From positions 64,001 to 128,000 of the forward strand of contig CAZFHY010000006.1 in the NCBI GenBank assembly GCA_964519305.1: 64,000 nt of DNA, given 5' to 3'. The position numbers and the translations under genes were made by a program. Positions 38,107-64,000 of this stretch are shown piece by piece. Positions within the stretch are counted from its first letter, which is position 1, and every line of letters begins with the position of its first letter. Source of the DNA: Candidatus Undinarchaeota archaeon (GTDB taxonomy: Archaea; SpSt-1190; JASMDC01). Below the pieces are notes generated by a model. It saw only the letters and a list, made by a program, of their open reading frames with translations, had not been told where the DNA came from and made no database searches.

Positions 38107-39390
38107 TTAGCTCAACCGAACAAGCTTCTCGCACGGGAACTGGAATCCCTCTGGCATTGGTCGTCCTGTCGGGGGCGCCAAGCAGTAGATGATCGTGTCG
38201 CAGTCCGTGAAGAGGACCGGGAAGCACACCCCCTCGTCCGGAAGCTCGCCCTCATCGGGCTGTGGCAGGTCGAGGCAGATGTTGGTCCCTTTCACCTTCG
38301 ACGGCTTCAGAGGCTGGCCGTCGCAGTAGGGCATCTCGCCCTCGCAGTTGGAGTTCACCGTGTCGCCCGTGAACGTGAGAACACGGGCGTACTGTGTGAC
38401 CGGGATCATGCACGGTAGGTCCTCGTTCGCAGTGGTCGCACACCCGATCTGCTTCCACGCACCGTCCAGGGAACATCCCGAGGGATTTGGATCAGTGGTG
38501 GGTGCTGGGGTCCCGAGCGGCGGTACTTCCCCCCGCTCGAGCTTGAGGCACGGCGGTTCCCCCTCCTCGAGAGGCTCGTCGTCCACGGGACAGAAGAAGA
38601 GCGAGTCGCAGTCGATGAACGTGAAGGGGATGCAGGGCTCACCCTCCTCTCTCTCCATGCAGAGCTGGTTCCCGTCAACGATCTTGCCCGTGAACGCCTC
38701 GTCCTTGTTACAGAAGCTACCGCGGCATCCGAATGTCCCCGTGCCCCCGTCGGTGTAGGTGAGCATCACAGTGGCATAAGCGAGAGGTGCAGGGCTCGGC
38801 ATTTCGCGGCCTTCCAGGTCGGTGTGCCCGGTCTGGACCCATGATCCTGTGAGGGAGCAGCCAGTTGTTCCGGTGGCCGGCGTCGCTGATGGAGACGTGA
38901 CAGGTATCGGGCTGGCCGTGGCCGCGATCGGATTCGGTGTCGGGCTGGTTGTCGCATCTACCGTATTTTCGGTCATGGGCGACGGATCCTCGTCAACGGT
39001 CGGTTCCGGCTCGGTGCCGTTCATCAACGTCTCCCAGGGGACGGACGTGGGAACCGCTCCATCGCCCCCACTGGTCCCCGTGAGCCCGTCCAGGTAACCG
39101 CCCTGGTACCCGATGAGCGCCACGCCCAGAACGAGCACCGCAACCATGCTCAGAAGGACAGGAAGACTGCTGGATGCGGCCTCTACGGCCACGACCTCCT
39201 CGACAGGGGCGGCCGTCGCCTCCACGTACGCGGCCTGGGCCTGGAGCGACTGGAATGCGGTGTCCACGGCGGCGGGGTCGTATCCGGACTGGATCATGTA
39301 GGAGCGTACCTGGTAGGGGGTGTAGCCCTGGTTGAGATACTCCTGGATATAGTTGGCGTAGTAGCTCGTGTAGTCCTGGTACGCCTCCAC
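38107..39390 (-). CDS. Membrane-anchored protein with N-terminal three-helix module and two Cys-rich lipocalin-like repeats
   Basis: YIQEYLNQGYTPYQVRSYMIQSGY; single TM; T/P linker; two C.L.G.W.Q.G...C...F.DCD...C...PC.KL.R repeats. Confidence 0.7.
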   Translation of the reverse strand: MEAYQDYTSYYANYIQEYLNQGYTPYQVRSYMIQSGYDPAAVDTAFQSLQAQAAYVEATAAPVEEVVAVEAASSSLPVLLSMVAVLVLGVALIGYQGGYLDGLTGTSGGDGAVPTSVPWETLMNGTEPEPTVDEDPSPMTENTVDATTSPTPNPIAATASPIPVTSPSATPATGTTGCSLTGSWVQTGHTDLEGREMPSPAPLAYATVMLTYTDGGTGTFGCRGSFCNKDEAFTGKIVDGNQLCMEREEGEPCIPFTFIDCDSLFFCPVDDEPLEEGEPPCLKLERGEVPPLGTPAPTTDPNPSGCSLDGAWKQIGCATTANEDLPCMIPVTQYARVLTFTGDTVNSNCEGEMPYCDGQPLKPSKVKGTNICLDLPQPDEGELPDEGVCFPVLFTDCDTIIYCLAPPTGRPMPEGFQFPCEKLVRLS

Positions 39391-39413: not shown

Positions 39414-40184
39414 TTAAGTGGATTTGCCTTCGCGGGCCAGCGCCTCGCAGGGCACTTCCACGCCCGCGGCCGGGGGGCGGTCCACTGGCGAGAGGCAGTA
39501 CACCATCGTATCGCAGTCAACGAACTCCAGCGGGTAGCAGAGGCCCGTGGTGTCCATGCAGATGCGGCGACCATCCTCTGTCCTGGCGGACGTGCCCTCG
39601 CCCGGGGGACAGTACGGTTCTTTCCCCTCGCACTCGAGAACGGCGGTCCCGCCCTCATCGATTGTGACTATCCGCGCATAGTCCTCCAGTGCCACAGCGC
39701 ATGGTCGCTCCTCACCGTCTGTGGAGGCGCACCCAATCTGACGCCAGCGCCCTTCGATCGGGCACTCGAGCTCCGGGTCCACGCTCCGTGGCGTTGGTGT
39801 GGGGCTGGCTGAGGCGGTGCGACGCTGTGCGGTTCTTGTACTCGTGACGGCCTGGAGCTGCGTGCGGACAATAGGTTCAGCCTGGATCCCGCTGGTAGAG
39901 GTGAGGTTGTGGAGGAGACCTTGCTGATATGCAACAACAAACCCTCCTATGAGCACCAACACGGCAAGGAGAGCGACCACAGTTCCCCGGGATTGTCCTT
40001 CATTGGTCGGTGTCGGCGGCTCCTCCCCTTTAACGAGGGCCTCCGCAGTGGCCTCGTCGTACCCCATCTCGATGAAGAGCTCCTTGACCTGCTCGGGTGG
40101 GTAGCCCATCTGCAGGTACTCCTGAGCATAGGATGCATAGTAGCTGGAGTACTGGGCATCCCCCATCGGGAGGATACTCATCAC
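39414..40184 (-). CDS. Tandem paralog of upstream gene with one lipocalin-like repeat
   Basis: YAQEYLQMGYPPEQVKELFIEMGY; TM; CPIEGRWRQIGC...FVDCDTMVYC...PCEALAR. Confidence 0.7.
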   Translation of the reverse strand: MMSILPMGDAQYSSYYASYAQEYLQMGYPPEQVKELFIEMGYDEATAEALVKGEEPPTPTNEGQSRGTVVALLAVLVLIGGFVVAYQQGLLHNLTSTSGIQAEPIVRTQLQAVTSTRTAQRRTASASPTPTPRSVDPELECPIEGRWRQIGCASTDGEERPCAVALEDYARIVTIDEGGTAVLECEGKEPYCPPGEGTSARTEDGRRICMDTTGLCYPLEFVDCDTMVYCLSPVDRPPAAGVEVPCEALAREGKST

Positions 40185-56014: not shown

Positions 56015-56731
56015 TTATCCGATGGTCACGGTCAGCTCTTCTTGTTTGATGTGCCGATAGTTGCCGCCAGTGTCCGAGGTGCACTGAGCTGGCTCGCAGA
56101 ATGCGCATTCTTCACTCATGTAAAGGCACACATCGACGGCGAACGTCCTGGTTCCCACTGTTGTGTTGGCCGGGACCGTGAGCTTAATGTTGCTGAACCC
56201 GATCTTGTGACTCTTCGCCGCGATAGTGCGCTTGCCAGAGAACCAATCCTGTCCTGAGAATGTATCCTCCTCCTTCGGGTGCAGGTTGATACAGAAGCAT
56301 CGCGGGTCCAGATCGTCGTTCTTGACGGCCACATAGAGGGAGCGCGGGGTGGAGTTGGAGGCGGCGATTTCGAAAGAGGAGGTCTCTAATGCCATCAGTT
56401 CGCTCGACATCTTCAGTTTGTCCTCGAGGCGGTCCCGTCGCTCAGCATCAGCACGGGCTTCCGGATCTAGGTTCGCATCAGTCTCGAACTGGGCACCTGT
56501 GATCCACTTCATGAAGGGCGGTATGAGCACTGTGACCATGATGAGGAAGATGATGGCAATGAGCGTTTTGATGATGCGTGGCGGCATCTCCGTCTCATCG
56601 CCCGAGAGGGCCTTCGCCACCTCGGCGGAGCCGACACCCTTTTTGAGCAGCGCCCTGCGGATCTCGGGTTTTGTATGTCCACGCTCCTCGAGCGTACGGA
56701 TCCAATCCCGGAGCTCTTCCTGCGACGGCAT
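56015..56731 (-). CDS. Membrane-anchored protein with N-terminal three-helix module and Ig-like C-domain
   Basis: WIRTLEERGHTKPEIRRALLKKGV; single TM; YVAVKND...LTVPANTTVGTRTFAVDVC. Confidence 0.7.
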   Translation of the reverse strand: MPSQEELRDWIRTLEERGHTKPEIRRALLKKGVGSAEVAKALSGDETEMPPRIIKTLIAIIFLIMVTVLIPPFMKWITGAQFETDANLDPEARADAERRDRLEDKLKMSSELMALETSSFEIAASNSTPRSLYVAVKNDDLDPRCFCINLHPKEEDTFSGQDWFSGKRTIAAKSHKIGFSNIKLTVPANTTVGTRTFAVDVCLYMSEECAFCEPAQCTSDTGGNYRHIKQEELTVTIG

Positions 56732-56791
56732 CTACCGACTGATAAAGACCTCAAGATTAAAAAAATAGATGTTCGGTATCGGGGCAACCGC

Positions 56792-57559
56792 CTACATTTT
56801 CGCGCCGCACCGGGAGCAGAACGCGGTCCTTCGCTTGTTGACGAATCCGCAAGTGTTGCAGGGGAATCCCTCAGGACCCTTGTCCTCTTCAGGTTCCTCA
56901 TCATCAGTCGGTTCCGGTTCCGGTTCGGGCGGCGGTCTTACGACCGCGCCCACGGGAGAGATATGCTCAGCAATGCTGGCACCAGGTGGTGCTGGTGGGG
57001 GCTGAGGTTGTGCCATAGCGCCCCCGTACTCGTCCCTCGTTGTCTCGTTATCGGGTCCTTTCCCGGGTGCGTTGAGCTGCTCCTCAATGGCATCCACGCG
57101 AGCTGCGAGCTCAGTTATGCGTTCGGCCGATTCAGCAGCGCCTGCGCCAGCGCTGTCAAGGCCGTCATGGGCTTCGGCCCGCGCCGTCTCGAGCGCCTTG
57201 CTCAGTTCGTCCACGCGGATCTTCAGATCACGCTCCTCGCTCTCTACTCGGGTGAGGGTATCCCGTTCCTCTTTGGATAGATGGGCCTCCACGGAGCCTG
57301 CTGGCGTCTCGACTTTTGGAGCCTCAGATGGTGCCTTGTGCACAACGACCTCCTCATCGTCCGTATCCCCTGCGGTAGGGGGGAGCACCAGAGCGCTGCC
57401 CAGACCTGCGAGGGCGAACAGTACTCCGACACCCAGGAGGAACGTGGCCTTGAAGTCCATGACCATCTTCTCCACACCGAGCATGAGCATTACGAGGCCC
57501 ACAGCAAGGATGGTAGCAGGGAGGATGGCGAGGATGCGTCGTGGATCGGGTGCTGCCAT
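56792..57559 (-). CDS. Two-TM protein with coiled coil, Pro-rich linker and C-terminal RanBP2/NZF-type zinc finger
   Basis: Two N-terminal TMs; heptads; FPCNTCGFVNKRRTAFCSRCG; ATG directly follows the upstream TAG. Confidence 0.75.
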   Translation of the reverse strand: MAAPDPRRILAILPATILAVGLVMLMLGVEKMVMDFKATFLLGVGVLFALAGLGSALVLPPTAGDTDDEEVVVHKAPSEAPKVETPAGSVEAHLSKEERDTLTRVESEERDLKIRVDELSKALETARAEAHDGLDSAGAGAAESAERITELAARVDAIEEQLNAPGKGPDNETTRDEYGGAMAQPQPPPAPPGASIAEHISPVGAVVRPPPEPEPEPTDDEEPEEDKGPEGFPCNTCGFVNKRRTAFCSRCGAKM

Positions 57560-59404
57560 CTAACGGAACACCCCCATGACCTTGTCAAGTAGACCTTTCT
57601 TCGCTTCGGGGCGCAGGGTCTTGACCAGCTTGGCCACAGTCTTGAGGTCCGTCCGCCTGAAGTGCTTCTGCGTTATGAACTCCTCCTTCACCCGACCGTC
57701 GGCCTCGACGTTATCATTGATGAATGGCTTGGGATCGACGACCGACACCCTTGGGGGGGAGAGGGGGTAGTTCTGTGAGAGGCGGACCTCGTAGTGCACC
57801 TTCTTGAGCTGGGCGCCATAGAGCGCCTTGTACTCTCCGCTCCAGAGGTAGATGTTATTTGCTAGCGGTTTGAACGTGGTGACCATGTCGGACACGAGGA
57901 TGTTCCCGATCTCCTCAAAGAACTCCTCGGAGCTTGTGATCTCGAACTTACGCACCCTCAGACGCTCCTTAACGATCTCCAATGCCTCACAAAGGCTCAT
58001 CTCGCCCTCCCATTCCAGGCCAGAACCGGGGTGTCCGAAGAGAACGAGCCCTGTGGGGGAATGAATGGCGCCGAAGAGGAGGATCCTCTCGGTCACATCG
58101 AGCCGGGAGTCGAACTTGATCATTGGGGGTGTCTGCGGGAAGTACGGGTCCACCAGGACCACGGCCTCGTAGGTGCGGCCGGTCAGCACTCCTTCACCAT
58201 TGATGGTCACGGCCCAGCCTCCCAGGACCTCCCTGTTCAGGTCCTGTGCGTACTTTCCCACCTCATTGTCGGGGATCTGTGTGATGGATGGCTCGTACTT
58301 CTCGAGGTAGCCCGCCTCATAGGATAGACGGGTCGTCGGGTCCATGGAGACAAGGTCCGTGCGCTTTAGGGCCCGGATGTCCTCAAGGACCTCCGCGATA
58401 TGGGTGTCCTCGGTCCATGCTGAGGTGAGGAGGGGGATAACTACTGAGCCCCCCACATCGATATGATCATTAGGGAACACGTTCCGAAGGGACACGCGGG
58501 GGGGTACCCGGGGGAATTCCTTGGGTACATCCACGACAATGTCGAGCGTGATGCCCTGATGGGTCGTCACTGGCCCCTCCCATCGCTCCACGTTGCCCTT
58601 CACGGGACGCAGCTGGCTCTTGCGCAGTAGCTGATAGGTCTCCAGGTACAACCGCGGCACCTCGCGGTGGACCCGCTCGATGCGACGACGTAGGGCGTCC
58701 AGTACACCGCTCAGGTCAGGGTCCTTGTTCCATTGGTAAGTGGCCAGGTTCTCGAGCTTGGCATACCCTTCCTCGTCAGTGAGCCGTGGATGGACAAGCC
58801 CTACCCGTACGGAGGGGGGGCTTTTTGGATACCCCTGAGGGAGGGTCACTATAACGATCTCGCTCTCCATACGTCCCTTGAACGTGTTCTTGCCGGACTC
58901 CTGGAATCCCTGCTTGAGCAGCAGGCGACGGTCCTTCCCAGCCTCGACACGTTCCCCGATATCGTCCAGGCGTGTGTAGATGAACTCACCCGGAGGGATC
59001 TGTTCCTCGAACGAGTAACTGTCCAGTGTGAATCGCGCCGGTGAGCGTGGATAGGCGGGAGGTAGTAGCACCTCCATTCGCTTCCCCTTGTGCTTTCCTG
59101 TTAGCGCGATCCCGCCGGTGTCCTCCTTGTGCGAGAAACCTTCCTCATGCAGAAAGGATACTTCGAGCGTCTTCTTGATCTCGCCATCGAGGAACTGGGC
59201 GAGCGGAAGACCGTCGGGGATTGGGACCTTCCGGTTCACTCCTCCCCCGGAGATGCTCGCGTTCTTGGCACCCTCCACCTGTAGCTTCACCTGGACCATC
59301 TTGCCGTAGAACTCACCACGGAGGTCGTAGATTGAGTCACCTACGAAAGAGAACCCGCTCCCACGGAGCTGATGAATCTCGCGGAGGATACGCGGGTCGG
59401 GCAT
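57560..59404 (-). CDS. Tandem E2/UEV(RWD)-fold repeat protein, catalytic Cys absent
   Basis: ATG 59404; five YP..PP-type motifs (PPAYPRSP, PQGYPKSPP, PKEFPRVPP, DPYFPQTPP, SQNYPLSPP) with UBC-like downstream segments (NDHIDVGGSVVIPLLTSAW; NDNVEADGRV). Confidence 0.75.
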   Translation of the reverse strand: MPDPRILREIHQLRGSGFSFVGDSIYDLRGEFYGKMVQVKLQVEGAKNASISGGGVNRKVPIPDGLPLAQFLDGEIKKTLEVSFLHEEGFSHKEDTGGIALTGKHKGKRMEVLLPPAYPRSPARFTLDSYSFEEQIPPGEFIYTRLDDIGERVEAGKDRRLLLKQGFQESGKNTFKGRMESEIVIVTLPQGYPKSPPSVRVGLVHPRLTDEEGYAKLENLATYQWNKDPDLSGVLDALRRRIERVHREVPRLYLETYQLLRKSQLRPVKGNVERWEGPVTTHQGITLDIVVDVPKEFPRVPPRVSLRNVFPNDHIDVGGSVVIPLLTSAWTEDTHIAEVLEDIRALKRTDLVSMDPTTRLSYEAGYLEKYEPSITQIPDNEVGKYAQDLNREVLGGWAVTINGEGVLTGRTYEAVVLVDPYFPQTPPMIKFDSRLDVTERILLFGAIHSPTGLVLFGHPGSGLEWEGEMSLCEALEIVKERLRVRKFEITSSEEFFEEIGNILVSDMVTTFKPLANNIYLWSGEYKALYGAQLKKVHYEVRLSQNYPLSPPRVSVVDPKPFINDNVEADGRVKEEFITQKHFRRTDLKTVAKLVKTLRPEAKKGLLDKVMGVFR

Positions 59405-59453
59405 GGGCACGTGGAGGTGCGCAAGATTAATAACGGTAGCGTCGACGGTCGGC

Positions 59454-62324
59454 TCAAGCCGGGATGCACTGTCGAGGTAATACCCATGCTCCGGGGTTTC
59501 TTGCGAAGTACACGGCCCGAGTCGCGTTGTGCTCGAACAGTACACCACTACGTTCGGTGATGACAGAGACCGTGAGCTCTTCCCATCCATCCAATGCCTT
59601 ATCGCAGAACCTGAACGGCTCAAAGTGGACGAGATAGCCGCCGGGGGCCGATGTGACGTACAGCGACTCGCGAACGGACCCGTCCAGATATGCCCGCACT
59701 GTCCGGGCAGCAGGGATGATGTCGCGGCCTGCCACGGATACCAGAACGTCCATGTCGAAGCCCCATGCCTGGAGCACCTGGTAGATTGGCTCCTCACGGG
59801 AGCCCGGTCGTACCTCCTCGATGGTCAGGCGTGTCTCTCCGGGCGCTACTAGCGTGATATGGTCGGTGCCGCTTCCAGTGCGGCCCAGACGTGCAACGCT
59901 GACGTCCACGGTGGCGCGGCCGGCGCTCAGGGATCCGGAGACCACGAGCGTCAGCACCCACTGACGCAGAGCGGGCACGTAGCGCATAGAGAAGACCCTC
60001 GATTCCGTACCCCGGATGGACGTTCGCAAGTCATCGCGTGTAAGGGTCGTGACGGGACTCCCGTCCCGGGTATCCACTACGGAGACGTAGGCATGAAGGA
60101 ATATGCCATGTCGTGCTTCCTCGAGCGGGACCGTCCGGGGTTCTATGGACCGGACTGTGACCTCGTAGCCGGGGCTCAAAGGACCGTACCAGAGGGGGAC
60201 GGAGGAACGTGCCGCTCCCATCTCGCCGTCGTGGTCCAGTGTTAGGAACAGCGGGATGGACCCTGGCGTGAGCGTACCTGCAAGGTGGGGTGGGAGCCGG
60301 GCACGGACCCGCCAGACCTCATCACGCCACGCCAACTCTATGTTCTCCGTAGGTAACGGGAGGTCACCCACGACCAGTGTGATCGAGTCTGCTGAGAGCC
60401 CACTGGAGACCGGGCCACCCTGCAGACGCACAGAGAGATCAAGGCTGACGATCACTTCACCAGTGGCAAGGGCGTCCATGTCCAATGCTTCTGGTCGGAT
60501 GTCCTCCACCCGGACCGAGAGCCCCTCCGGCGAGCAGCCGTCCTCGCGACACATCTCGCCCGGACCGCAGACGTGACCGAACGAGGCCGCCTCGTCCGTG
60601 CAGAGGCAATGGGAGGGGCACAGCTCCCACGGGAGGATGGCCGGGATCCGTTGGAGCCCGATCCGCGCCACACGTTCGCCGTCCTCCTCCGCAACGACGA
60701 AGGGTGGTTCATCCCCGCCGCCGGCGCATCCGACGGCCGTGCACTGCTGGCCGTGCTCGCACACGTCAACCAACCGGCCGTCCTCGGTGAAACACGCGCA
60801 CACAGGGTGTCGGTCGGAAGCGGGTACACACTGTCCGCCTGGGCCCATGCAGCGAAGGATGATGTCCCCCGTGCCCAGCGATCCGTCACGGCACAGACGA
60901 TCGTAATCGGTGCCTCTAAGGCCGGTCGGCACCCATTGCTCGACCTCGAGCGGGACGGTGTGAACGCCCGATTCGGAGCCACGGAACGCGGTGAGACGGA
61001 GTTGGTAATGGCCGGGTGGGACCGTTTCGGGGAGGGTGAAGTCGATCTTTCCACAGGGGTATGTACGACGGACGAGGATGCGCGCCTCTGTCCCAGTGTA
61101 GTTGATCAGCGCCACCTCGCAACGCTCACCTGGCGTGTCGATCCACATGCGGACGTCCTCGCCCACCATGTACGATGGCTGCTCGAGCGTGACCGGTAGG
61201 GGCACGGACCTCCCGGGCTTAAGGAAGTGGACGATGGTGTTGGCCGTGGCCGAGAGCCCCAGAGGATTGAACATGGTGACACGCACCACGTACTCCCCCT
61301 CTTCGGACTCTGTCGAGAGCGTGAGCGGGACATAGAGGCAGGAGGGGAGACCGTACTGGGCGTCAATGACATTACCCTCGTGCAGCAGTTCGACGGAACA
61401 GGCAGATATGCCGGCCCCGGCGAAGGCGCCCACGACCATCGTCTCGCCGAGGAGGAACGTGTCCGTCACACGGCCGGCACCGTCACCTACTACAAGTGTA
61501 ACAGGGAAGAGGCGCGGCCTGACGAGCACCTCAGCAGTGGCGTTGATCAGGACATTGAAACCCTTGTACTTGACCAGCGAGTGTATGATGACGGGCGTGG
61601 CAGGGCACTGGCCACCTTCGTACTCCTCGCACCCCATCCCCGCAGGATCGAGCTCGAGAAGGGCGGAGTCACAGGTGAAGCATGCGCGGGGCCGTCCGAG
61701 GGATTGACCATCGATGGAGAACGCACCCCATACGATGAACTCCACCTCGTCGCTGAATGAGAATGTTACGATGTCCCCTGCATAGTACTGGTCGAGGTCG
61801 GTGACCAGCGGGGCGTTGGTGATACAGTCCTCGGTCCCGTCCCGACACTGGAGGGGGAACTCCAGGCCCACTCGCTCCTTGCGTGTGATGTGGCTGGTCG
61901 CCAATCCTGTCGTAGGGAGGGTATAGGTGACGGTGCGTTCGCCGACCTCCTCTGCCTCGTCCACGAGTATGAACCCGCGGGGTGTGTAAGAGAACTTGAG
62001 GGTGGGTCGCAGCTCCTCGAGCGAATACGAGCGTGCCACAGTGAGCAGGGGCTCAACGGTGGTGAACCGTAGCGTGACAGAGTCACCGGTCACGTCGTAG
62101 GTGCACGCGCGAGTGTGCGCGGGTGCGAGCTGGGCACAGGCGCGGTCGAGCACGCCCGGTTTGAGGAGAGTGTCCATCAGTCCATCACCCACACCGTCGA
62201 GGGTCACGGTGATGTGGTTGATGGGAGAGCGTGATACATCGACCTCCTCTAGGATGGTATCCACGACCACAGCTGTCGCGGGAGCGACCACTAGGAGCAA
62301 GGCCAGGAGGATGGCGCTCCTCAT
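59454..62324 (-). CDS. Large secreted multi-Ig/MG-like domain protein with Cys-rich repeats
   Basis: Signal peptide from ATG 62324 (ATGA overlap); TDLDQYYAGD, QPSYMVGEDV, FTLPETVPPGHYQL macroglobulin-like segments; C..GQQC...GC repeats. Confidence 0.7.
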   Translation of the reverse strand: MRSAILLALLLVVAPATAVVVDTILEEVDVSRSPINHITVTLDGVGDGLMDTLLKPGVLDRACAQLAPAHTRACTYDVTGDSVTLRFTTVEPLLTVARSYSLEELRPTLKFSYTPRGFILVDEAEEVGERTVTYTLPTTGLATSHITRKERVGLEFPLQCRDGTEDCITNAPLVTDLDQYYAGDIVTFSFSDEVEFIVWGAFSIDGQSLGRPRACFTCDSALLELDPAGMGCEEYEGGQCPATPVIIHSLVKYKGFNVLINATAEVLVRPRLFPVTLVVGDGAGRVTDTFLLGETMVVGAFAGAGISACSVELLHEGNVIDAQYGLPSCLYVPLTLSTESEEGEYVVRVTMFNPLGLSATANTIVHFLKPGRSVPLPVTLEQPSYMVGEDVRMWIDTPGERCEVALINYTGTEARILVRRTYPCGKIDFTLPETVPPGHYQLRLTAFRGSESGVHTVPLEVEQWVPTGLRGTDYDRLCRDGSLGTGDIILRCMGPGGQCVPASDRHPVCACFTEDGRLVDVCEHGQQCTAVGCAGGGDEPPFVVAEEDGERVARIGLQRIPAILPWELCPSHCLCTDEAASFGHVCGPGEMCREDGCSPEGLSVRVEDIRPEALDMDALATGEVIVSLDLSVRLQGGPVSSGLSADSITLVVGDLPLPTENIELAWRDEVWRVRARLPPHLAGTLTPGSIPLFLTLDHDGEMGAARSSVPLWYGPLSPGYEVTVRSIEPRTVPLEEARHGIFLHAYVSVVDTRDGSPVTTLTRDDLRTSIRGTESRVFSMRYVPALRQWVLTLVVSGSLSAGRATVDVSVARLGRTGSGTDHITLVAPGETRLTIEEVRPGSREEPIYQVLQAWGFDMDVLVSVAGRDIIPAARTVRAYLDGSVRESLYVTSAPGGYLVHFEPFRFCDKALDGWEELTVSVITERSGVLFEHNATRAVYFARNPGAWVLPRQCIPA

Positions 62325-64000
62325 GCAGCGCACCCCCGTACACCTGCGACCTGTACGAATCCGTGGTCGGTCTTTGTAGTGAACAGCGGGTCCATCACCA
62401 CATCGTGCTCGCTATCCCCCTCGATGGTTAGGACGGTGGCGGCGGTGCGCACCTTGTACACCGGGGTGCCGTCCTGGTCCGTTGGTGTCGCAAGTAGGAT
62501 GTACCGTCCGGGGAGCACTCGTGGGAAGGCATACCGCCCGTCAGCATCGGTCCGTACCTCGAGCATCTCCAGGTCGGGATCGACGGGAAGGAGCGTTAAA
62601 CGTACCGCTGCCGGTGGGGAGCCGGGAACGAATACCAGTGGTCGCATGTCAGCGATATCACTGCACGGCCCCTCTGCTACATTTTCTGTTCGGTGGTCAA
62701 GGCAACCTAGTGTGAACGTTTCTGCGCACAGTATGGTGGTGTTCTCGGCCACGATCCCTGTCAGTGAGGCATACTGCGGGAGCACAACGTCGATCGGTAC
62801 TTGGGCGGGGAGAACGACGTTCACGGAGGTACCTCCTACGCCCTCTGTGTCGAGTGGGATCACTGTGAGACGGCGGATACCGCAGGGGAGACCTGAAAGC
62901 AGGGTCTCGCCCGATACATCGAAGGTCAGCGCACCACCACAAGGCTCCACTATGACCTGTACCCGTTCTGCACCTACGGGCCGGATCGTCGCTTCGCAGG
63001 TCCCCGTGCAGGCGAGGTCCACCTCCCGAGGTGGTCCATTGGCGGCCTTAGGTAGGATCGTGCCTCCGCCAGTTACCAACCAAGGAACGATCACGAACCG
63101 CAACCGGAGGGGGCGCATGAGCGATCCGGATGGAAGGCGCCCGGCGGGTGTGAGGTCGGTGAGCTCCACCTCAAGAGGGAACTGGATGTCGTAAACGGCC
63201 CGGTAGCTCTTGTACCATGGAGCGCGACCTGAGCACAGATCGACCGCGCACGGTCGCTCATCCCTGGCGACACCACGCACCGTGATGGTGCGTTCGCCCC
63301 CGTTTACGGAGAGGTTGAGGAGAGGATAAGCGCTAGCGGCCCCCTCTCCCTTGTCGCCCAGGCGGGGCCGTGCCGACCAGGATAGAGACCGCATGAGAGC
63401 CACAGGGTCCGCCGCGTCCTCGTCGACACCGGCCAACTCGGCACCAAGTCGGCTGAACAGACGTTCGGACCGCATGCGTGCTGCAAAGAGGGTCGCGGCC
63501 ACGCCGAGGTCCTCTCCGATAGCTCTTCGCAGGGCCTGTTCGTCCAAGGCCACGTTGCCCTCGTCTGTCATGCAGAAACCAGGATGGCGACGTCCCCTGG
63601 CGTCAGGAAGCGTGAACGGATCGCAGGTGAGGTCCGCAGTGGGGCCCGGTACACGTGGATCACGCTCCATGAGGAACGCGGCCAAGCTCTCGATCCCGCG
63701 GTACCAGAGGTTATCGACCTCGCCTGATTCGGGGCCCGCCTCGGTGTACAGCTGTGTGACAGCACGCGCGATGCGTACAAGGCGGAGTAGACGTAACGGC
63801 AGCTCAACTGCCACCGGTTCCTTGATGGAGGAGCTGGTCCCGTCACGTGTTATTGTCAAAGGGATCTCGGCGGAGAGGCGAACGAAAGCGTCCCCGACCT
63901 CCACGTCACTGGTTCCGAGGGAGATGCGGTCACCGTCAAGCTCCAATCCGTCGATCCCCTCCACGCCCGCGGTAGCGAGCTCCTGGATGTTGGCCTCCAA
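62321..64000 (-). CDS. Large hypothetical (probably exported) protein, 5' end outside window; C-terminal carboxypeptidase-regulatory/PEGA-like domain
   Basis: Open frame to the window edge; VRTDADGRYAFPRVLPGRYIL motif. Confidence 0.65.
   Translation of the reverse strand: MEANIQELATAGVEGIDGLELDGDRISLGTSDVEVGDAFVRLSAEIPLTITRDGTSSSIKEPVAVELPLRLLRLVRIARAVTQLYTEAGPESGEVDNLWYRGIESLAAFLMERDPRVPGPTADLTCDPFTLPDARGRRHPGFCMTDEGNVALDEQALRRAIGEDLGVAATLFAARMRSERLFSRLGAELAGVDEDAADPVALMRSLSWSARPRLGDKGEGAASAYPLLNLSVNGGERTITVRGVARDERPCAVDLCSGRAPWYKSYRAVYDIQFPLEVELTDLTPAGRLPSGSLMRPLRLRFVIVPWLVTGGGTILPKAANGPPREVDLACTGTCEATIRPVGAERVQVIVEPCGGALTFDVSGETLLSGLPCGIRRLTVIPLDTEGVGGTSVNVVLPAQVPIDVVLPQYASLTGIVAENTTILCAETFTLGCLDHRTENVAEGPCSDIADMRPLVFVPGSPPAAVRLTLLPVDPDLEMLEVRTDADGRYAFPRVLPGRYILLATPTDQDGTPVYKVRTAATVLTIEGDSEHDVVMDPLFTTKTDHGFVQVAGVRGCAA

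Follow-up and report, generated by a model that had tools for sequence, protein, structure and literature searches.

A six-unit pseudo-E2 and an adjacent membrane-hairpin zinc-ribbon protein as a candidate membrane-tethered binding scaffold in a Candidatus Undinarchaeota archaeon

We analyzed a 64,000-nucleotide window of the genome of a marine archaeon assigned to Candidatus Undinarchaeota (G000; positions 64001-128000 of the full contig, G000:C6) and focused on two minus-strand genes, one encoding a poly-UEV protein, here called the scaffold, and the other a small membrane protein, here called the partner. The poly-UEV gene (57560..59404) specifies a 614-residue protein that, as read from its sequence, is a six-fold pseudo-E2 of the UEV/RWD type with a UBC fold devoid of the catalytic cysteine. 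The partner gene (56792..57559), which abuts it, specifies a 255-residue protein with a transmembrane (TM) hairpin and a C-terminal zinc ribbon. Both belong to a series of five co-oriented minus-strand open reading frames (ORFs; 56015-56731, 56792-57559, 57560-59404, 59454-62324 and a fifth that extends from 62321 out of the window), which an earlier note on this DNA had joined into a single cluster, citing an ATGA overlap at 62321-62324 and a TAG followed directly by an ATG at 57560/57559. The sequence confirms the five genes and both junctions, whereas our best reading is that only the two middle genes form a functional unit. We tentatively favor the view that this unit is a membrane-tethered, non-catalytic binding scaffold, in which the hairpin partner would keep the six-unit pseudo-E2 attached to the inner membrane face and the units would bind proteins non-covalently.

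The scaffold, counted from the ATG at 59404 (the longest frame extends to a GTG at 59797), matches the Pfam UQ_con family (PF00179) over four stretches (E 9.2e-23, 80.8 bits, cut-off 27) and the UEV family (PF05743; E 3e-9, 37.2 bits, cut-off 27). The secondary structure of an AF2 model delineates six alpha/beta-meander units, all on the minus strand: residues 1-88 (59141-59404), 89-165 (58910-59140), 166-262 (58619-58909), 263-370 (58295-58618), 371-505 (57890-58294) and 506-614 (57563-57889). Five of the six contain a [YF]PxxPP-type motif, at residues 118, 192, 297, 422 and 546. In VIA, residues 250-354 and 355-485 match E2 and UEV structures with Z-scores of 8-9.8, the former aligning with 2h2y (Z 9.8 over 99 residues, root-mean-square deviation 3.0), VPS37A (Z 8.8), the Vps23 UEV (Z 8.7) and Mms2 (Z 8.5) and the latter with the E2 G1 (Z 8.5). 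Since E2 and UEV structures are tied in this comparison, the fold does not tell the subfamilies apart. The ESM Atlas returned only sub-0.9 UBC-like leads for the scaffold, and PADLOC a weak E2-module match (E1-E2, 3.6e-7, 27 bits).

The active site of the E2 enzymes is lost. In PDB profile alignments to UbcH7 and UbcH5, the column of the catalytic cysteine is occupied by valine (GSVVIPLL), and the HPN motif of E2s is replaced in the scaffold units by FPN, HPR or similar. The sole cysteine, residue 472, is also present in a 42%-identical homologue (P0003, described below) and lies in the helix that follows the meander of unit 5, outside any active-site loop. The predicted protein is therefore no catalytic E2, as no active-site cysteine follows an HPN motif, and it cannot conjugate, as none of its copies has a catalytic cysteine. 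The poly-UEV assignment made in the earlier note is borne out by Pfam, the PDB profile alignments and VIA as a UBC/UEV fold without this residue, and the missing cysteine contradicts the name 'ubiquitin-conjugating enzyme E2' that public databases attach automatically to the scaffold. Hydropathy analysis detected no hydrophobic segment in the protein, which should accordingly be cytosolic.

The scaffold gene is present in a single copy, extremely rare and under strong purifying selection. HMMER was run exhaustively against 1.84 billion representative proteins (E <= 0.001) and yielded 13 matches, only two of which are full-length: P0001 (95% identity) and P0003 (42% identity, 619 residues, encoded on one 4872-bp contig). 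The others are one 53-residue fragment and single UBC domains aligning to scaffold residues ~250-355, those with names being Asgard 'E2 variant' proteins (E 1e-5 to 1e-3) and one plant E2. The five motif-bearing units occupy corresponding positions in the scaffold and in P0003, indicating that the duplications are old and that each unit has been individually kept. Scans of genome and metagenome contigs recovered only loci 95% identical to the scaffold, on one contig of a sister genome and two metagenome contigs. Among 17 genomes of the class, UQ_con was found in this genome and its congener, and the whole scaffold used as a query matched three of 41 related and other archaeal genomes, the third through a weak match to a catalytic E2 within a RING-Ub-E2-E1 operon of an unrelated archaeon. 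This compact operon (G028, L003:368-3312; 1.4-Mb genome), in which RING, ubiquitin (ending in GG), E2 and E1 genes follow one another, is followed on the opposite strand by a coiled-coil gene and a cysteine-less UEV-like gene.

Within the genome, the poly-UEV and partner genes each retrieved only themselves (blastp, E <= 1e-5, whole genome). Comparison with the sister species detected purifying selection on all five genes (dN/dS 0.06-0.26), with values of 0.063 for the scaffold, close to the 0.054 of a LonB-like protease encoded upstream, 0.12-0.13 for the two genes that precede the poly-UEV gene and 0.24-0.26 for the partner gene and the 238-codon gene that follows it. The scaffold is 95% identical and the partner 79% identical to their sister-species counterparts.

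The partner has the organization described in the earlier note, with two TM segments followed by a helical region, a Pro-rich region (APSEAP, PQPPPAPP and PPPEPEP) and a CxxC-type finger. Two hydrophobic segments, the first preceded by Arg-Arg, lie inside residues 6-64 and form the hairpin (57386-57535), and are followed by the helical region (residues 95-165; 57065-57277), a conserved Pro-rich patch (residues 184-217; 56909-57010) and the C-terminal zinc ribbon (residues 234-251; 56807-56860), with the sequence FPCNTCGFVNKRRTAFCSRCGAKM. The tail is rich in acidic residues (Asp or Glu at 43 of 196 positions) and in proline (23 of 196), and an acidic linker precedes the ribbon. We infer an N-in/C-in topology, which would place the tail in the cytosol. 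A word-based search with the partner retrieved six close orthologues only (74-100% identical), in which conservation covers the hairpin and the helical region (~95-165) as well as a YGGAMxQPxPPP patch and the ribbon-bearing final 25 residues, whereas the linkers are variable and one lineage carries a 10-residue insertion in the inter-TM loop.

The two genes abut: on the minus strand, positions 57562-57557 read ...CGTTAGATGGCA..., the TAG stop of the poly-UEV gene (57562-57560) being followed immediately by the ATG of the partner gene (57559-57557), and the same 0-nt spacing is found in the sister species. Sequence reading revealed no TATA-like box between them, and one, TTATTAAT (59426..59433), 21 nt upstream of the poly-UEV ATG. 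The coupling of the two genes put forward in the earlier note is upheld by this spacing in both species and by a TATA-like box placed only ahead of the first gene. At the other tight junction, the minus strand at 62321-62324 reads ...GCATGAGG..., an ATGA overlap of the genes for a 686-residue and a 956-residue protein. Neither junction is rare or out of the ordinary for an operon. Among 1692 co-directional neighbor pairs in a crude genome-wide ORF set, a start with a 4-nt overlap is possible in 238 and an abutting start in 27.

At the remaining two junctions the genes lie 49 nt (59405-59453) and 60 nt (56732-56791) apart. Both spacers contain a TATA-like box, the second being TATTTTTTTAAT (56756-56767), 24 nt ahead of the ATG of the 238-codon gene at 56731. 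Genome-wide, the A+T content ahead of 1363 ATG starts shows a peak between -25 and -34, which fits the TATA boxes of leaderless archaeal mRNAs. The boxes and the peak together suggest three transcription units, comprising the genes for the 686- and 956-residue proteins, the poly-UEV and partner genes, and the 238-codon gene, and TTATTAAT may act as the promoter of a leaderless transcript of the middle pair. Separate promoters for the poly-UEV and 238-codon genes are therefore likely. A sequence common to both TATA-like regions, TTAATCTTG, was considered as a special element and rejected, as it occurs 7 times in the genome against ~6 expected. The stretch was detected in 13 sequencing runs, with no RNA run listed among them.

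The NZF/RanBP2 label given to the partner finger in the earlier note could not be sustained. The ribbon follows the pattern C-x2-C-x3-N-x6-C-x2-C and has an aromatic residue at the second position ahead of its first cysteine, and in both respects resembles NZF/RanBP2 fingers such as those of Npl4 and Vps36. Unlike these, it matches the RanBP profile (PF00641) at only 12.3 and 16.2 bits against a cut-off of 27, generic zinc-ribbon models scoring equally well or better, and all of its zinc-ribbon Pfam matches are sub-threshold (Zn_ribbon_NUD 0.026, Zn_Ribbon_1 0.032, RanBP 0.1). A whole-genome RanBP scan scored higher on the ribbon of a tyrosine-recombinase-like (integrase) protein (26.2 bits) than on the partner (16.2 bits), and the exact spacing was found in three of 2958 ORFs, the other two encoding integrase-like proteins of this genome. 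The low score and the occurrence of the spacing in integrases point to a generic prokaryotic zinc ribbon. Fingers of the ubiquitin-binding NZF subclass have a Thr-Phe dipeptide, and their second cysteine knuckle includes a hydrophobic residue. As the earlier note had remarked, the partner has GF in place of TF, and its second knuckle is C-S-R-C; GF and C-[SA]-R-C are kept in all six orthologues. We rejected an NZF assignment given the sub-threshold PF00641 match, the missing Thr-Phe and the non-specific spacing. Public databases name the partner 'zinc finger Ran-binding domain-containing protein', and the automatic names of scaffold and partner both appear to overstate what the sequences support.

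The genome (99.83% complete) shows no ESCRT or conjugation setting for the pair. No second UBC-fold protein and no catalytic E2 were found with Pfam UQ_con and a custom profile of 15 aligned units. Pfam searches returned no match to Snf7 (PF03357) or Vps4_C (PF09336), so that ESCRT-III and Vps4 do not appear to be encoded, although the Snf7 model scored only sub-threshold on a Sulfolobus control and a very divergent CdvB could be missed. The single ubiquitin-family protein, of 620 residues, is encoded on contig C8 (L013:7564-9426, minus strand) and combines a mid-protein zinc ribbon with a C-terminal ubiquitin domain (E 1.3e-8); the protein ends in ...FLMG, without Gly-Gly. A word-based search found it only in this genus, and its gene is divergent from a tubulin/FtsZ-family gene (L013:9503-10786, plus strand; Pfam Tubulin 1.9e-21, GGGTGSG motif). 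We consider this protein a candidate ligand of the scaffold, to which it is linked by co-occurrence alone.

The sister genome (G001) carries on contig C68 (L018:463-2437) an operon, not found in G000, for a ubiquitin-like protein ending in Gly-Gly, an E2-like protein with the cysteine (HPN...C) and a JAB/MPN peptidase, which resembles bacterial-type ubiquitin-like conjugation or defense operons; contamination of G001 is listed at 6% and the origin of this contig is unsure. PADLOC matched neither this E2-like protein nor any of the four proteins encoded beside the scaffold. G000 itself, at 3.63 Mb and with ~62% G+C in the window, is either exceptionally large for a group with small genomes or misplaced, the 15 other class genomes searched all measuring 0.6-1.2 Mb. 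Close homologues are publicly labelled 'Candidatus Undinarchaeales archaeon'.

In the mechanism that we propose, the poly-UEV gene would yield a soluble cytosolic six-unit pseudo-E2, and the partner, translated in step with it, would insert in the membrane as a helical hairpin with its tail most likely in the cytosol. The tail, through its helical segment, Pro patch, acidic linker and ribbon, would dock the scaffold on the inner membrane face, where six differing UBC-fold surfaces could bind other proteins non-covalently. Domains of the beta-grasp (ubiquitin-like) class, which the 620-residue protein exemplifies, would be candidate ligands, and the unit would operate without ubiquitin conjugation and without ESCRT. 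Cue1-Ubc7 and Pex22-Pex4 provide a familiar precedent, in which membrane anchors recruit soluble, catalytic, single-domain E2s, and Ubc7 entries with the Cue1 U7BR appear among our Foldseek and VIA matches. Our working model likewise sets beside a soluble UBC-fold protein a small protein that is anchored in the membrane and has a helical region in the cytosol, but the E2s of those pairs are catalytic and single-domain, and scaffold-partner binding is here a prediction.

Several points weigh against this proposal. The binding of scaffold to partner and the co-transcription of their genes are both predictions, as are the topology of the partner and the nature of the ligand. The AF2 model of the scaffold has low confidence overall (mean pLDDT 61.7, pTM 0.35, from a 3-sequence alignment), and its Foldseek matches to Mediator and FANCL chains have TM-scores of just 0.10-0.22. 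The dN/dS of the partner gene, 0.26, is four times that of the scaffold, a difference not usually seen with an obligate partner, although conserved blocks remain. The candidate ligand is encoded on a different contig from the scaffold, its AF2 model has a mean pLDDT of 30.3 and only one of its four putative beta-grasp repeats passes the Pfam cut-off, the other three giving a match at E 8e-4, weak matches only and no match, respectively. Synteny is confined to close relatives, namely the sister species and probably a third lineage, and says little. A complex prediction for the full scaffold with partner residues 60-255 scored 0.00 in two runs with an uncertain partner fold, and speaks neither for nor against binding.

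The main rival, which we judge possible but doubtful, is that the scaffold serves in solution as an assembly platform of the RWD type, comparable to FANCL, MED14 or kinetochore RWD proteins, with no tie to ubiquitin-like proteins or to the membrane, and that the zinc-ribbon protein shares no more than a transcript with it or does something else altogether. Foldseek with the whole model ranked Mediator-PIC chains first (E 2e-5 to 3e-4; chains that we take to be MED14), FANCL chains next (1e-4 to 9e-4) and single E2s after them. The Pfam RWD family (PF05773) exceeds its cut-off in the last unit (E 2.8e-8, 34.3 bits, cut-off 22.8), the best stretch, residues 530-565, covering only part of the profile, and the faster evolution of the partner would also fit a scaffold that acts without it. 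FancL and Med14-17 are classed as atypical RWD/UBC-like proteins without conjugation roles by Tromer et al. 2019 (PMC6601020). Like FANCL, with its E2-like fold and double RWD, and like Mediator subunits of the Med14/15/17 class, the scaffold would assemble several non-catalytic UBC/RWD folds in one chain; unlike them, it is archaeal, has no RING and is encoded next to a membrane anchor, and the matches have low TM-scores on a low-confidence model. The abutting stop and start kept in the sister species argue against the platform, as do the nearest single-domain relatives of unit 4 (residues 263-370), which are not RWDs but Asgard 'E2 variant' proteins, and the conserved blocks in the cytosolic tail of the partner, which argue for a binding function there.

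The earlier note had proposed that all five genes constitute one ESCRT-like membrane sorting or surface-assembly system, in which the UEV units would recognize motifs resembling P(S/T)AP and ubiquitin would be read by an NZF-type finger, so as to handle the two exported proteins. We now regard this as very unlikely. Co-orientation, a gene order conserved in the sister species, the PxxP motifs of the partner (residues 185, 189 and 210) and the RanBP2-like cysteine spacing of its finger speak for such a system, and a preprint reports that an Asgard UEV was tested by surface plasmon resonance against the Vps23 domain, in which a PXXP motif is conserved (10.1101/2023.07.25.550441). The scaffold shares with ESCRT-I UEVs (yeast Vps23, human TSG101) and the Asgard UEV-Vps23 a UBC fold without the catalytic cysteine, as illustrated by the match of residues 250-354 to the Vps23 UEV, as well as single-domain relatives that are Asgard E2 variants and a Pro-rich protein encoded adjacently. 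Unlike these proteins, it has six tandem units instead of one and no Vps23 stalk or steadiness box, and E2s score equally in VIA. The ESCRT frame is further undermined by a genome in which neither Snf7 nor Vps4_C was detected and by a motif scan that found no P[ST]AP in the partner, and the far sub-threshold RanBP score, exceeded by that of an integrase ribbon, speaks against a ubiquitin-reading finger.

The exported proteins, moreover, are not tied to the pair. The gene for the 956-residue secreted protein (family F1; 59454..62324, minus strand), which begins with a signal-like segment, and that for the 686-residue protein (3' part at 62321..64000, minus strand; full gene G000:C6, L004:6822-8882), which starts 381 nt outside the window and has one N-terminal hydrophobic segment, form a separate multi-copy cassette outside the poly-UEV unit. 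Whole-genome tblastn and blastp searches identified 22 copies of the 956-residue family and 22 close copies of the 686-residue family on at least 15 contigs; they are nearly always adjacent, often with a giant relative of the 686-residue protein alongside. As the poly-UEV and partner genes match only themselves, the other 21 cassettes have no such neighbors, and the whole-genome search placed none of these pairs near either gene. The tree built from the 22 paralogues places the copy beside the poly-UEV gene together with two from contig C27 (support 100/100), and these closest paralogues likewise lack poly-UEV and zinc-ribbon neighbors. Together with the 49- and 60-nt spacers, whose TATA-like boxes split the units, these data detach the exported proteins, which belong to one of 22 scattered gene pairs, from the single-copy poly-UEV and partner genes to which the earlier note had linked them. 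Gene order alone had wrongly tied a multi-copy surface-protein cassette to the poly-UEV unit.

Typical cassettes consist of a ~930-residue secreted protein beside ~610-residue and often 1100-3700-residue relatives with a pilin-like N-terminus; besides the site at 59454-64000, they occupy ~21 others (for example C27:16069-21191 and C27:32417-37602) and a sizeable share of the genome. By eye, the N-terminus of the 686-residue protein, ...RRGQTVILAIVALALVV..., resembles a pilin-type signal of archaea. The cassette proteins gave weak beta-sandwich hints but matched no family in Pfam or NCBIfam, and the ESM Atlas returned nothing for the 956-residue protein. Directly upstream of the cassette, just past the window end and co-oriented with it, lies a gene for a LonB-type protease (L004:9117-10970, minus strand; Lon_C 3e-31, LonB AAA-LID), which is 95% identical to its sister-species counterpart and thus conserved like the scaffold.

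Downstream of the partner gene, the 238-codon gene (56015..56731, minus strand) encodes a type-II membrane protein with a small cytosolic N-terminal helical module, one TM segment and a Cys-rich outer domain, and is probably a separate transcription unit with its own TATA-like box. One weak tblastn match was found for it, on contig C5 (30% identity over 69 residues, E 9e-5). Its N-terminal module of ~45 residues (…RGHTKPEIRRALLKKGVGSAEVAKAL…) bears a loose likeness to the N-termini of type-II membrane proteins encoded at 38107-39390 and 39414-40184 (minus strand); by eye it also recalls a UBA-like three-helix module, while Pfam gave only weak RecX matches (E 0.015). The conservation of gene order in relatives, which the earlier note had named as a check, holds in part: the sister species keeps the order and the 0-nt pair, but a gene for a 1186-residue protein is inserted between the zinc-ribbon and 238-codon genes, so that the cluster is no fixed block even within the genus. 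The inserted gene (L005:5712-9272, minus strand, in the sister genome) encodes FGE-sulfatase and bacterial TSP3 repeats, and part of its product is 29% identical to residues 100-217, in the outer domain of the 238-residue protein.

A role of the pseudo-E2 units as conjugation cofactors, as Mms2/Uev1 are for Ubc13, serving an E1-like ThiF protein and a small ubiquitin-like modifier, is highly improbable: the genome has one ThiF-family E1-like gene (240.7 bits) and the VIA matches include Mms2 and Uev1 (Z 8.0-8.5), but neither UQ_con nor the custom unit profile found a catalytic E2 in it, and the ThiF gene lies on a contig other than that of the scaffold and is of a common kind, the same search matching in 12 of 14 control genomes.

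UEV and RWD folds serve eukaryotes as key adaptors and take part in sorting, DNA repair, transcription and chromosome segregation. The fold of the scaffold and the loss of its active site are textbook features of these families; their combination with six units per chain, a non-Asgard prokaryote, a dedicated membrane anchor encoded adjacently and a genome without E2 or ESCRT is not. In a limited search of the literature on Asgard UEV/ESCRT, Undinarchaeota ubiquitin and Med14/RWD, including PMC10936438 and PMC6601020, we found no description of a six-fold UBC prokaryotic protein or of this combination. Non-catalytic UBC folds (UEV, RWD) have been proposed to descend from an archaeal non-catalytic E2 (PMC6601020). 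A bolder extension of the membrane-tethered scaffold, which we regard as improbable, is that this non-Asgard lineage has its own ESCRT-free and conjugation-free ubiquitin-like recognition machine, in which the hexavalent membrane-tethered pseudo-E2 would read the beta-grasp repeats of the 620-residue protein. If true, such a machine would be an equivalent in prokaryotes, or a precursor, of the tandem-RWD scaffolds of FANCL, Mediator and the kinetochore. With neither a catalytic E2 nor ESCRT detected, this genome provides a simple setting for studying the ligands of a pseudo-E2 scaffold where there is no conjugation.

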